Shown here piece by piece: positions 28,501 to 32,000 of a stretch of 32,000 nucleotides of DNA. Within the stretch, counting starts at the first letter, position 1. Each line of letters opens with the position of its first letter. A model generated the notes under the pieces. The model was not told the origin of the DNA. It saw nothing but the letters and a program-made list of their open reading frames with translations, and ran no database searches. The stretch comes from Nitrosomonas europaea (GTDB lineage Bacteria; Pseudomonadota; Gammaproteobacteria; Burkholderiales; Nitrosomonadaceae), in NCBI RefSeq assembly GCF_900167395.1, contig NZ_FUWK01000028.1, positions 7,709 through 39,708 of the forward strand, given 5' to 3'. Position numbers and translations under genes: made by a program.

Positions 28501-29472
28501 TTACATATCCAGCGGGCTTCTGACACCCCGCCCGCCTTTATTGAGAACATGGGTATAAATCATCGTTGTATGGACATCCTTATGACCGAGCAGCTCCTGG
28601 ATAGTGCGGATATCGTAGCCTGAATCGAGTAAATGGGTCGCAAACGAATGGCGTAAGGTATGCGGAGTAGCCAATTTGGTGATGCCACTGGTCTGCACTG
28701 CTTTTTTCATCGCCCGCTGCAATAGTTTCTCGTCTATATGATGTCGCCGCTCGACACTGCTGCGCGGATCGATCGAAAAACTTCCGGAAGGGAAAATATA
28801 TTGCCATATCCAGTCTGTTGCTGCGTTGGGATATTTGCGTTCCAACGCGTCCGGCAAATACACCGATGCCTTGCCTAAACGGATATCGTCATCGAACAAG
28901 ACCCGGCGCTGAAGTAAATACGTCTGTAAAGGACTCACTAACGACTCCGGCAGTATCGTGACTCGATCCTTGGCCCCTTTGCCGTCGCGGATCAAGATCT
29001 CGCCACGTTCAAAATCCACATCCTTCACTCTGAGACGCACACACTCCATCAAACGCATCCCCGTGCCGTATAGAAGATTCGCCATCAAACCATAGGTTCC
29101 ACTCATCCGGACCAAAATGGCCTGCACTTCGGTGCGCGTCAGAACAACAGGTAACCGTTGCGGCTGCTTGGCGCGTACGACCTTATCCAGCCAGGGCAAG
29201 TCAATCGACAGCACCTCTTTATACAAAAACAGCAAAGCCGACAACGCCTGGTTTTGGGTCGAAGCTGATACTTTACCAACCACTGCCAAATGCGTTAAAA
29301 ATGCCTCTACCTCTGCTGCACCCATTTCTTGTGGATGGCGCTTACCGTGGAATAGAATGAAACGCTTTATCCATTGCACATATTGGGTTTCGGTACGCAG
29401 GCTATAGTGTTTGATACGGATACGGTCACGAACCTGATCCAGGAGTTTTGGCGGTGTATTTGTATTTCCCAT
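28501..29472 (-). CDS. intI: Integron integrase IntI
   Basis: Tyrosine recombinase with the IntI-specific insertion. [54 protein letters not shown] parallels IntI1 [23 protein letters not shown]...DPRSGVVRRHH. The N-terminus [22 protein letters not shown] and the catalytic [12 protein letters not shown]...[14 protein letters not shown] are also present. Confidence 0.95.
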
Positions 29473-29478
29473 AAAAAG

Positions 29479-29507
29479 TTGATACAGATTAATAGGCGTG
29501 ATAGATT
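29479..29507 (+). promoter_or_regulatory. Candidate cassette promoter (Pc-like): TTGATA-N17-TAGATT with TG extended -10
   Basis: -35 TTGATA at 29479-29484, a 17-nt spacer, TG at 29499-29500, and -10 TAGATT at 29502-29507. It is oriented toward attI and the cassette. Predicted from consensus only. Confidence 0.4.
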
Positions 29508-29532
29508 CTCAAGAATCTGATCATTTTATGAG

Positions 29533-29567
29533 TTATACACCTATGATCAAAGTTTATTATACACCTA
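29533..29567 (+). repeat. Two perfect 11-bp direct repeats TTATACACCTA spaced 24 nt start-to-start, inside the attI region
   Basis: Copies at 29533-29543 and 29557-29567, read directly. Their position just upstream of the GTTAGGC core is analogous to the DR1/DR2 accessory integrase-binding sites of attI1. Confidence 0.6.
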
Positions 29568-29574
29568 GAAAGGT

Positions 29575-29592
29575 GCCTACTTAACGTTAGGC
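29575..29592 (+). other. attI simple site with recombination core GTTAGGC (crossover expected between G29586 and T29587)
   Basis: GCCTACTTAACGTTAGGC. The right half GTTAGGC (29586-29592) fits GTTRRRY. The left half GCCTAC is an imperfect inverted copy. It lies 114 nt from the intI start and 21 nt before the first cassette ORF. Confidence 0.6.
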
Positions 29593-29612
29593 TTACAGAG
29601 TCAGGAGCAGAT

Positions 29613-29984
29613 ATGAGCGAGCAAATTTTTTTCGAACACGACGGTGTTCGCGTCTCTAGCGCACGCTTTGTTGTCAAGGGAGCCACATATCCTATAAGTG
29701 CAATCACATCCGTTCGAGCAGTCAGATCAAAAACTTTTCCTTTGTTGGCTATCGTCTTGATACTAATTGGATTTGGCATTCTTCTTGGTGGTGAGCCGAC
29801 GTTGCTGATTTTTGGTCTTGCTACTATTGCGCTTGGGGTTGTGTGGATAATAAAGAAAAAAGAACTCTATTCTGTTGTGCTACAAACATCGTCAGGTGAA
29901 TCTCAGGTTCTAGAGAGCCAAGATAGGCAATATATTCACTCGGTTGTCGATGCATTAAATAATTCCATCGTCCAGCGCGGCTAA
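29613..29984 (+). CDS. First integron cassette ORF: small two-TM membrane protein of unknown function
   Basis: AGGAG lies 6 nt before the ATG. 123 aa. The N-terminal soluble segment (FFEHDGVRVSSARFVVKGATYPISAITSVRAV) is followed by two hydrophobic helices and a ~45-aa tail. The stop TAA is immediately followed by the attC inverse core. Confidence 0.7.
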   Translation: MSEQIFFEHDGVRVSSARFVVKGATYPISAITSVRAVRSKTFPLLAIVLILIGFGILLGGEPTLLIFGLATIALGVVWIIKKKELYSVVLQTSSGESQVLESQDRQYIHSVVDALNNSIVQRG

Positions 29985-29989
29985 GCCTA

Positions 29990-30058
29990 ATCGGGTAGCT
30001 GGGAGCTTTTAACTCCCAGCCCCCACACCACCCACCGTGCGGGTCCGCAGTAGGCGGT
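29990..30058 (-). ncRNA. Intron ribozyme domains V and VI (3' end of the group II intron)
   Basis: Domain V candidate at 30058-30027. It has a 9-bp lower helix containing a CGC triad with a G-U wobble, a 2-nt bulge (CG) on the 3' strand, and a short upper helix. Domain VI candidate at 30024-29993 is GGGG-GCTGGGAG/CTCCCAGC-T(A)CCC. The single bulged A (29996) lies 7 nt from the 3' end. Folded by hand. Confidence 0.55.
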
Positions 30059-30090
30059 TCAACGAGCGTGCTCGTGTGACGACGACGCCT

Positions 30091-31404
30091 TCAACCCTTG
30101 TCCGGCCCGTAGCTCTGTGCTTTGCACCACAGGTCTTTGATGCTGAGCAGTCCCTGTGCCCTGAGCCAGTCGTTGGACATGGCCTGTTGGGTCACCGGAG
30201 TTCTGGCCATGCGCCAATAGCTCAGGCTGCTCACGCCGTGTTGGATGGCAGCCTTCAGCGGTATGCCCAAGTCCAGCAGGTGCCGGATCTTAGTGCGCGC
30301 CCAGCGCCACTGTTTCCAGTAGCACATACGCACCCGACGTCGGATCCATTCGTCCAGTTCCGGGATCGGCCGGTAGTACTGGCTGATCCCGTAGTACCCG
30401 AACCATCCCCGCAGATACTGACCGAGCTTTTCCAGCCGGTACTCCATGCTGACGCCCCAACTTCTGCCGGTGAGTTGCCGCACCCGATGCTTGAAATTCG
30501 CCAGGGATTTCTCTGTCCAGCGGATCTTCTTGCCCACAAGAGTGAAGCCTAGAAAGCTGCATTCACTCATCGGTGCGACTTGGCTCTTGGCCAGGTTCAC
30601 GGTGAGCTTGAGGGTGGATTGCAGGAAGTACGTGAGGCTTTGCATCACCCGCTCGGCCGCGCGTCGGGACTTGACCAGGATGATCACATCGTCGGCGTAG
30701 CGGGCGAAGCGGTGTCCGCGGCGTTCCAGTTCGAGATCGAACTGGTGCAGCAGGACGTTGGCCAACAGCGGCGAGAGCGGCCCGCCTTGCGGCGTGCCCA
30801 CCTCGCTGGGTTGGGGGTGCTCCCCGACCAGCACCCCGGCGCGCAGGTAGCGCCCGATCAGGGCCAGCAGTCGCTTGTCGGCGATGCTTCGACTCAGCAG
30901 GCTCATCAACAGGTCATGGTTGACGTTGTCGAAGAACCTGGCCAAGTCCAGATCTACCGCCCAACGGTAGCCGGCCTTCACGTGCGCCTGCACCTGGCGG
31001 ATCGCCTGGTGTGCATTGCGGCCCGGTCGGAAGCCGAAGCTCGATGCCGAAAAGCCCGGATCGAAGATCGGTATGAGCACCTGGGCGATGGCCTGCTGGA
31101 TGACCCGGTCCGTGACGGTCGGGATGCCCAGTTGCCGTTGGCCGCCATCGGGCTTGGGGATATCCACCCGTCGCACCGGTTGCGGCCGATATCGCCCGGC
31201 CTCGATCTGCTCGCGCGTGGCTGGCCAGTGTGCGCGGGCGTGTTCGGGCCATTCCGCCGTGGTCACGCCGTCGATACCCGGCGCCCCCCTATTGGATTTG
31301 ACCCTGCGCCACGCCCGCGCCAGGTTGTCTCTGGCCAGCACGGCCTCGAGCAGGTCTTGGCCGTCTTGGTTATGGTCGTCGTCTTGGTTCAAGGCTCGGT
31401 GCAT
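30091..31404 (-). CDS. Group II intron reverse transcriptase/maturase (no endonuclease domain)
   Basis: RT motifs 0-7 are present: RVKSNRGAPGIDGVT, IPKPDGGQRQLGIPTVTDRVIQQA, DLDLARFFDNVNHDLL, GTPQGGPLSPLLANVLL and ARYADDVIILV (YADD). The maturase X domain reads LGFTLVGKKIRWTEKS...LRGWFGYYG. 437 aa, with no C-terminal HNH, as in class C introns. Confidence 0.93.
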   Translation of the reverse strand: MHRALNQDDDHNQDGQDLLEAVLARDNLARAWRRVKSNRGAPGIDGVTTAEWPEHARAHWPATREQIEAGRYRPQPVRRVDIPKPDGGQRQLGIPTVTDRVIQQAIAQVLIPIFDPGFSASSFGFRPGRNAHQAIRQVQAHVKAGYRWAVDLDLARFFDNVNHDLLMSLLSRSIADKRLLALIGRYLRAGVLVGEHPQPSEVGTPQGGPLSPLLANVLLHQFDLELERRGHRFARYADDVIILVKSRRAAERVMQSLTYFLQSTLKLTVNLAKSQVAPMSECSFLGFTLVGKKIRWTEKSLANFKHRVRQLTGRSWGVSMEYRLEKLGQYLRGWFGYYGISQYYRPIPELDEWIRRRVRMCYWKQWRWARTKIRHLLDLGIPLKAAIQHGVSSLSYWRMARTPVTQQAMSNDWLRAQGLLSIKDLWCKAQSYGPDKG

Positions 31405-32000
31405 GCCGACCGCCGCCGTGCCTGGCCCATGCGGGCTTCATCGGTTTGGTCGAGTTCGGTCACGTCTGCTCCTTAGTATCTCGTTGTTCAGCCCTTCGGC
31501 AGCCCGACACCTGGCTGCCTACTATGGCTTCTGCTGACTTCTGCACCGTCACGCCCACCGTTGCCAGTGGACGCGCTGCCCGTCTGATCGTGCGTCGCTG
31601 CCGGTTTCTTCGCTCGTGGCGGGCAGCTCGCCACGGCTCCTGGTCCTTGGTTGCCCGGTGGGACCGGCCGGGTCATCGTCACGATCAGGCTGGCCGCCGT
31701 CAGCACAGACCTCCCCAGGTAAGAACGCGAACTGTCGGTGCACAAGCGCCGCATTTACCGTGGCCGGCGTACCGTTGGGCTTCGCTGTCATGTGCCAGCT
31801 CGCCTCGCCTGCCTCGGCCTTCTATGCGGTTTCTGTCCGTCGCCTCGCACCTCTTGCACTCCGGCTTCCTCCAGACAATCCCTCACGGGCTTGCCCTTGC
31901 CTTCGGCTCGTGGTTATACTCGGTTCACAATGAATCCAAGTCGGTACTCCCACAGGGGACTTGCACCCCATAAGTTCGCGCCCATGCTGGGCGCACACAA

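Follow-up and report, generated by a model that had tools for sequence, protein, structure and literature searches.

The 32,000 nucleotides of Nitrosomonas europaea DNA examined here (contig NZ_FUWK01000028.1, positions 7,709 to 39,708; hereafter the window) end in a group II intron that lies antisense inside an attC site, directly behind the DUF6232 cassette, which is the only cassette of the window integron; no cassette lies beyond the intron. This arrangement raises the question of whether the attC interrupted by the intron is the one that belongs to the cassette in front of it. We are confident that the element is N.e.I1, a mobile, attC-targeting class C (IIC-attC) intron in the chromosomal integron of strain ATCC 19718, and that it occupies a chimeric junction which arose most likely by recombination between intron copies, a deletion between two copies being the favoured path.

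The intron itself is already known. Its reverse transcriptase (RT) maps twice to the N. europaea ATCC 19718 genome AL954747.1, within the gene neighbourhood seen in the window (accessions CAD86009.1 and CAD86102.1; the minus strand of the window is locus L003). N.e.I1 has been described as a IIC-attC intron of AL954747 that lies in an integron, has the convergent gene ampG as its 5'-exon gene and carries two outward promoters on the complementary strand, P1out (TTGCCC-18-TATACT at 77-106) and P2out (TTGCCA-16-TCTGAT at 409-435) (Leon, Quiroga, Centron & Roy, NAR 2010, PMC3001079, Table 3). Because the genome and the positions of both promoters match this description, we conclude that the element is the published intron, and no difference from it was found within the intron. 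The intron thus adds nothing new; the modest addition made here concerns its flanks, namely the chimeric attC and the rearrangement of the integron by intron copies.

The boundaries of the intron could be fixed to the base. On the minus strand it runs from 31996 to 29990 (2007 nt), beginning with GTGCGCCCAGCA at 31996 and ending with ...CAGCTACCCGAT at 29990, and the termini GTGCG and ...CCCGAT fit the group II rule of a 5' GUGYG and a 3' AY. The intron is preceded by TTGT as its 5' exon (32000-31997) and followed by TAGGCTTAGCC as its 3' exon, read from 29989 downward. On the plus strand, the junctions read GCTAA GCCTA|ATCGGG at 29980-29995 and GGCGCAC|ACAA at 31990-32000; the insertion divides GCCTA|AC, five bases past the stop codon of the first cassette. 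Two kinds of intron-free allele were available for comparison. The first, DUF6232...TAAGCCTA|ACAAGG..., was found in nine contexts, Caldimonas genomes and several metagenome arrays among them, all nine of which read ...GGCTAAGCCTA|ACAAGGCATTC... without an intron. The second, ...ACCTA|ACAAGTCGCTCAAGG...ampG, was found on the activated-sludge contig L027, where the flank is uninterrupted and identical at 230/230 nt. Since each empty allele fixes one side, the insert is exactly 29990-31996, and the alleles show no target-site duplication at the intron boundaries, as expected for retrohoming. These results bear out a first-pass annotation made from the DNA letters alone, which had given the same coordinates, ends and exon sequences and had placed the intron antisense within the inverse core GCCTAAC of the first cassette, right after its TAA.

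The same alleles show to which cassettes the two halves of the attC belong. The simplest history would be a single retrohoming event into the attC of the DUF6232 cassette itself, so that the sequence past 32000 would be the remainder of that same attC. In agreement with this, the rejoined GCCTA|ACAAG... adopts a good attC fold in which the R boxes pair, and the native DUF6232 attC and the attC found here both read ACAAG right after the insertion point. The nine intron-free DUF6232 cassettes (0-1 mismatches per 403 nt), however, all carry the same short attC, ACAAGGCATTCAAGCCG...GTTAG, a 59-nt site of the aadA1 type (GCCTAACAAGGCATTCAAGCCGACGCCGCTTCGCGGCGCAGCTTAACTCAGGCGTTAG) with the remainder ACAAGGCATTCAAGCCGACGCCGCTTCGCGGCGCAGCTTAAC, whereas the window cassette is followed, across the intron, by an unrelated attC of 111 nt. 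On L027 this long attC closes a cassette of the ceramidase family (Pfam Ceramidase, 6.4e-13) next to ampG, that is, at the same chromosomal position, and this cassette starts G|TTAGGT and has the R'' box ACCTAAC, so that both of its ends match. Because DUF6232 carries a short attC elsewhere and the long attC is self-consistent in L027, the two attC halves flanking the intron come from different cassettes, and the junction is chimeric: the two halves cannot be assigned to one cassette as a cognate attC. A single retrohoming event is thus improbable. In ATCC 19718, nothing remains of the body of the ceramidase-family cassette, and the DUF6232 cassette no longer has its native attC. The statement in the first-pass annotation that the attC of the first cassette is split therefore needs to be divided; the intron does break R'', but the distal part belongs to a different cassette. 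Comparison of the loci suggests that the long attC represents a family common to several cassettes. A close variant of it separates a 148-aa unannotated cassette from a 64-aa cassette in L028 (2650-3400), a metagenome contig unrelated to the window.

The sequence past 32000 has the properties of a genuine attC. Together with TAGGC, it forms a site of 111 nt, AACTAAC...GTTAGGC (L003 9303-9408 plus TAGGC), which folds as DNA with -34 kcal/mol (z = -5.65) and pairs CTAAC with GTTAG in its R boxes, completing the stem-loop whose absence would have spoken against the initial interpretation. The rejoined attC also passes a relaxed structural scan, for which the background in housekeeping DNA is 0.04-0.07 sites/kb. 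A strict RYYYAAC...GTTRRRY scan was discarded, having missed both intron-bearing attCs of the genome owing to their deviating R' boxes (AGCTAAC and AACTAAC); the relaxed scan recovered both. In general, class C introns insert after terminators (PMC7923331), and here, too, a hairpin precedes the insertion site. The stop codon of ampG lies 36 nt past the attC, and the gene is convergent to the cassette and co-oriented with the intron, which starts 149 nt downstream of it after this strong hairpin. The target of the intron might thus have been the terminator of ampG transcription, and the sequence might look like an attC by coincidence. We consider this hardly credible, since the hairpin lacks a T-run, genuine cassettes in L027 and L028 have this very sequence as their attC, complete with R'' and R' boxes, and the 3' exon is the R'' of a cassette.

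The first-pass annotation had proposed a search for other copies of the intron at attC sites, and one was found. The window copy corresponds to AL954747 2,378,147-2,380,153 (-), and a second copy, inverted and 91 kb away, occupies a short attC at 2,285,095-2,287,101 (+) (L002 9409-11415), the two showing 0 mismatches over 2007 nt. The second copy lies between a 76-aa cassette and a short attC of the aadA1 type, in a cluster with no integrase nearby, and the TAA stop of the 76-aa cassette is formed across the insertion point. Because the switch from one cassette to the other in the window falls within the intron or exactly at its ends, homologous recombination between intron copies is the likeliest origin of the junction. 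Downstream of the second copy we also noted small toxin-antitoxin and TIR genes and attC-like sites at L002 11726-11797, 14136-14199 and 21116-21203.

Recombination between these two inverted copies would invert the 91 kb between them, and our first reading was that such an inversion, in the ATCC lineage, made the window junction and that the 5' exon of the second copy is the true remainder of the DUF6232 attC. The copies are indeed identical and inverted, the 5' exon of the second copy belongs, like the native DUF6232 attC, to the short type (48/51 positions identical), and both reciprocal junctions occur in metagenome contigs, intI-DUF6232-intron-short attC in L017 and L019 and ampG-long attC-intron-76-aa cassette in L004 and L008. 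We downgraded this reading because the short type is common (the attC of aadA1 included), because 3 of ~51 attC positions differ compared with at most 1/403 in the cassette body (Fisher p = 0.005), because a homologue 88% identical to the 76-aa cassette ends in an attC of the short type, which makes the junction at the second copy look native, and because the GC skew continues across the intron without a change of sign, being -0.075 within the 91-kb interval and -0.061 outside it. In addition, the short attC in L017 and L019 is that of L002 rather than the one native to DUF6232, the cassette to which the long attC is cognate is that of the ceramidase family, and gene-strand bias likewise gives no sign of an inversion, most window genes lying on the strand expected for the present orientation. 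The inversion is thus an unlikely origin of the window junction, though the least unlikely of the alternatives considered, and we favour a path by deletion.

On the deletion path, one intron copy would have resided in the old last attC, the long one, beside ampG. Another copy would then have homed, in the same orientation, into the attC of a newly acquired DUF6232 cassette, and recombination between the two direct repeats would have deleted everything between them. The reciprocal contigs would on this path be inversion derivatives in other populations or mis-joins at the 2-kb repeat. Several points weigh against this path and against the chimeric junction on which it builds. Unless L004, L008, L017 and L019 are misassembled, their reciprocal junctions mean that inversion between inverted copies does occur, and it could be part of the history; the intermediate, an intron in the short attC of DUF6232 followed by that same attC, was not found among the loci; and attC families are common to many cassettes, the short type being close to the attC of aadA1, so that arguments about a cassette's own attC rest on few mismatches. 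A misassembly of the window itself, by which two copies of the 2-kb repeat would have been joined wrongly, was also considered. The repeat exceeds short reads, the contigs L006, L007, L014 and L016 end inside it, and conflicting junction pairs occur among the metagenome assemblies, but the finished genome AL954747.1, a second, chromosome-level assembly (CM135170.1) and the independent contigs L005, L010 and L013 all show the arrangement of the window, which makes such an artefact very improbable.

The structure of the junction recalls the model of Leon & Roy, in which a gene gains a foreign attC when copies of the intron recombine (summarised in PMC7923331 and PMC3001079). The order of an open reading frame (ORF), an intron and a foreign attC is common to both. 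The model starts from a non-cassette gene with a terminator, which becomes linked to an isolated attC before splicing and reverse transcription take place, whereas in the window an existing cassette has swapped its attC and no later steps are seen. PMC3001079 makes no mention of the non-cognate flanks or of the second inverted copy, and nothing further of relevance was found in the literature on N.e.I1 and on inversion of the N. europaea integron; earlier literature, incompletely covered, may describe the junction. We tentatively propose, rating the chance at somewhat below even, that the junction is a natural and hitherto undescribed attC swap by intron-copy recombination, equivalent to an intermediate of the Leon-Roy type, and that the inverted copies may drive a reversible 91-kb inversion.

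How genes acquire an attC, and thus how cassettes originate, is a long-standing open question. To our knowledge, the only concrete model of cassette origin invokes recombination between intron copies. The chimeric attC is direct sequence evidence that copies of the intron supply movable stretches of homology through which integron arrays are rearranged, and a natural example in a culturable host with an active IntI allows sense transcription, splicing and reverse transcription to be tested. A reversible 91-kb inversion, if it occurs, would separate or reunite parts of the integron in N. europaea populations.

Table 1. Features of the intron and the adjoining integron in the window.
Feature	Positions	Strand	Evidence and remarks
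Group IIC-attC intron N.e.I1	29990..31996	-	Rfam; empty-site alleles; identical second copy; P1out/P2out positions
Intron-encoded protein, 437 aa, RT + maturase (X)	30091..31404	-	Pfam; YADD at aa 236
Domain I core, Rfam group-II-D1D4-3	31724..31892	-	118.7 bits, E 4.9e-24, full-length model match
Domain I hairpin GCUGG-CACAUGA-CAGC	31784..31799	-	Loop ACA = candidate EBS1 (exon-binding site 1)
Domains II-IV junction region, Rfam group-II-D1D4-1	31491..31575	-	70.6 bits, E 5.9e-11
Domain V, ACCGCCUACUGCG-GACC-CGC[AC]GGUGGGUGGU	30027..30058	-	32-nt hairpin, 2-nt bulge; RNA fold centroid
Domain VI	29992..30025	-	RNA fold; bulged A at 29996, 7 nt from 3' end
Outward promoter P1out, TTGCCC-N18-TATACT	31891..31920	+	Promoter scan; intron 77-106, as published
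Predicted outward promoter P2out, TTGCCA-N16-TCTGAT	31561..31588	+	Intron 409-436; published 409-435; N.e.I1 activity: prediction only
IBS1 (intron-binding site 1) TTGT, last 4 nt of 5' exon	31997..32000	-	attC continues ~102 nt past window, then ampG
DUF6232 cassette body + first 5 nt of R'' (GCCTA, 29985-29989)	29587..29989	+	DUF6232 6.9e-23
attI/cassette junction G|TTAGGC	29586..29592	+	Cassette start 29587
intI, integron integrase, 323 aa	28501..29472	-	Pfam Phage_integrase 9.4e-38, Phage_int_SAM_4 9.7e-31

The intron-encoded protein agrees with a placement in class C. Its ORF matched RVT_1 (1.8e-40) and GIIM (1.4e-19) only, and no endonuclease domain was detected by Pfam. Compared with solved structures, the protein scored 462 bits over its full length against the GsI-IIC RT and 376 bits against 7uim, two further fragments of class C RTs gave ~285 bits, and the scores against LtrA (IIA) and 6me0 were 140 and 134 bits, respectively. 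Among solved structures, the RT is thus closest to those of class C introns. The placement made here is one of similarity scores to solved RTs; the phylogenetic placement is that of PMC3001079, the Fig. 3 of which puts N.e.I1 in IIC-attC. GsI-IIC, from Geobacillus stearothermophilus, and the class C intron RT of PDB entry 7uim resemble N.e.I1 in their full-length RT/maturase similarity and in a short architecture without an endonuclease domain. Their introns follow terminator-type hairpins and are not known to insert at attC sites. A scan covering one genome per species yielded 282 loci with RT relatives, the closest of which (75-86% amino acid identity) come from Burkholderiales and Rhodocyclales genomes.

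The ribozyme identity of the RNA is supported by two Rfam models (Table 1). The D5-D6 model (RF00029) gave no match, even at a permissive E-value on 29400-32000, nor did any other family there, and domains V and VI were assigned by RNA folding instead. The last 73 nt, comprising both domains, fold as RNA with a joint z of -5.65, and the bulged A of the predicted domain VI is a candidate branch point. Scans of the window for tRNAs and tandem repeats found nothing.

Relatives of the intron reveal a common target. Thirty-five non-redundant related insertions, with both intron ends placeable, were compared; GT occupies positions -2/-1 in all 35, T follows at +1 in 34, a purine at +2 in 30, G at +3 in 28 and at +4 in 21, and C at +5 in 24. 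The target of the lineage may thus be written GT|TRRRY, which complements the attC inverse core on the bottom strand. The insertion site in the window, TTGT|TAGGC with the cassette on the opposite strand, is of this kind, and IIC-attC introns have been reported to insert in R'' of the attC bottom strand at TTGT/T, opposite to cassette transcription (PMC7923331). Together with the RT scores and the lack of an endonuclease domain, the common target supports the early assignment of the intron to the attC-targeting introns of class C. For the mechanism, we presume that the intron RNA and the RT/maturase would recognise the folded bottom strand of attC and that reverse splicing at GT|TRRRY would be guided by 3-4 bp of pairing between IBS1 and EBS1 together with a single-base IBS3; reverse splicing into the bottom strand would leave the intron antisense to the cassettes, inside R''.

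A tentative EBS1 could be assigned by comparison of the same relatives. In a hairpin of domain I, the loop ACA (intron nt 204-206, window 31793-31791) can pair with TGT of the IBS1 TTGT. In aligned relatives the same loop reads ACAA where the exon ends in TTGT, ACTA with TAGT (L057) and ACCA with TGGT (L086), and all four Watson-Crick pairs between EBS1 and IBS1 are formed in 12 of the 35 relatives, representing three sequence types. Against this assignment, the loop does not pair with IBS1 in close relatives from the N.e.I1 clade whose insertion sites are GGGT. An EBS1 in the internal loop CCCAAC-GGUAC was considered as well and dropped, as it showed no covariation with IBS1.

Relatives of N.e.I1 also occur on plasmids. 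A megablast search of the intron against plasmids gave two short matches only, of ~100 nt each; plasmid relatives were found by tblastn, the nearest with 56-59% amino acid identity. They lie antisense in class 1 integrons, between aadA1 or blaIMP-4 and qacEdelta1, at ...GAATTGT|...|TAGAC and ...GAATTGT|...|TAGAA, the checked introns sitting after aadA1 and after the first cassette blaIMP-4. S.ma.I2, E.c.I7, Kl.pn.I1 and their kin share with N.e.I1 the antisense position at TTGT|T in R'' of the attC bottom strand, the endonuclease-less RT and the outward promoters in domains I and II (PMC3001079; PMC7923331). The introns of class 1 integrons differ in that they reside in mobile integrons and have a cassette or qacEdelta1 downstream of Pout, whereas the integron of N.e.I1 is chromosomal and its Pout is followed by a convergent housekeeping gene. 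IS1111-attC elements (ISPa21 and ISPst6) likewise target attC, near its 5' end, and lie antisense to the cassettes (PMC3001079), but they are DNA transposons, not retroelements, and are not known to have an active outward promoter. In two distant relatives, L073 and L078, the intron 3' end ...CCCGAT abuts the 5' end of another copy (GTACGCCC..., or ACGCCC... without GT), indicating tandem or nested intron copies. In Nitrosomonas sp. H1_AOB3 (CP054389.1; L001 8084-9446), a copy with a short-attC 5' exon is apparently broken ~100 nt from its 5' end by an insertion sequence with an rve-type transposase, of which further copies lie nearby.

The position of the intron bears on the expression and mobility of its surroundings. 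Transcripts driven by the cassette promoter Pc cannot splice the intron out, as the first-pass annotation had rightly reasoned, and because the R box of the attC is broken by the intron, IntI probably cannot excise the DUF6232 cassette. The further suggestion that the intron blocks the downstream cassettes holds in part. The related intron S.ma.I2 does impede transcription from Pc, but outward promoters compensate (PMC3001079); N.e.I1 has an active P1out, which, when cloned, gave more than 5-fold stronger expression of a cat reporter in E. coli than the weak Pc (PMC3001079), and in the window no cassette follows, only the convergent ampG. P1out points toward exon 1, across the attC and into the 3' end of ampG, and any transcript from it at this locus would be antisense to ampG rather than directed into a cassette. 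Sense transcription of the window copy by read-through from ampG is possible, since the intron lies downstream of ampG and is co-oriented with it, and the hairpin between them lacks a T-run.

The high G+C content of the intron had been read as a mark of recent foreign origin. The underlying spot counts are accurate (78.3% in the line at 30781 and 41.7% in the line at 29701), and overall the intron has 63.6% G+C, compared with 43.7% in the cassette and 50.9% in the remaining window. G+C content is weak evidence for dating, though, because a high G+C content is typical of introns of this lineage regardless of their location, with a mean of 59.5% vs 52.8% in their flanks and a higher value than the flanks in 28/34 loci. 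The identity of the two copies over 2007 nt is a better sign of recent activity.

The integrase, an integron-type tyrosine recombinase divergent to the cassette, is named 'integron integrase [Nitrosomonas]' in its source (CAD86100.1). In the spacer between intI and attI, two divergent sites match promoter consensus sequences and are candidates for Pc and PintI: TTGATA-17-TAGATT with a TG extension, at 29479-29507 (+), which points toward the cassette, and TTGATC-16-TAAAAT, at 29550-29523 (-), which points toward intI. At the attI junction, the upstream sequence diverges exactly before GTTAGGC in ten other contexts, and the cassette is identical from TTAGGC on; TTAGGC is complementary to GCCTAA, the R'' of this same cassette. 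The cassette ORF (29613-29984) encodes 123 aa, and its TAA directly precedes GCCTA. With 0-1 mismatches per 403 nt to copies in Caldimonas and metagenome arrays, the DUF6232 cassette seems to travel widely across unrelated arrays. Near-identical copies were seen in L015, L018 and L020-L026, once directly after an aadA-like gene, and one source labels the cassette 'QacE-like protein integron orf'. In L016 (4096-4497), the DUF6232 cassette is the sixth gene and is followed by the 3' end of the intron (30 nt, identical) and then by the contig end, and the attC preceding it ends like the long attC type; L016 may represent a related strain that later added cassettes at attI.

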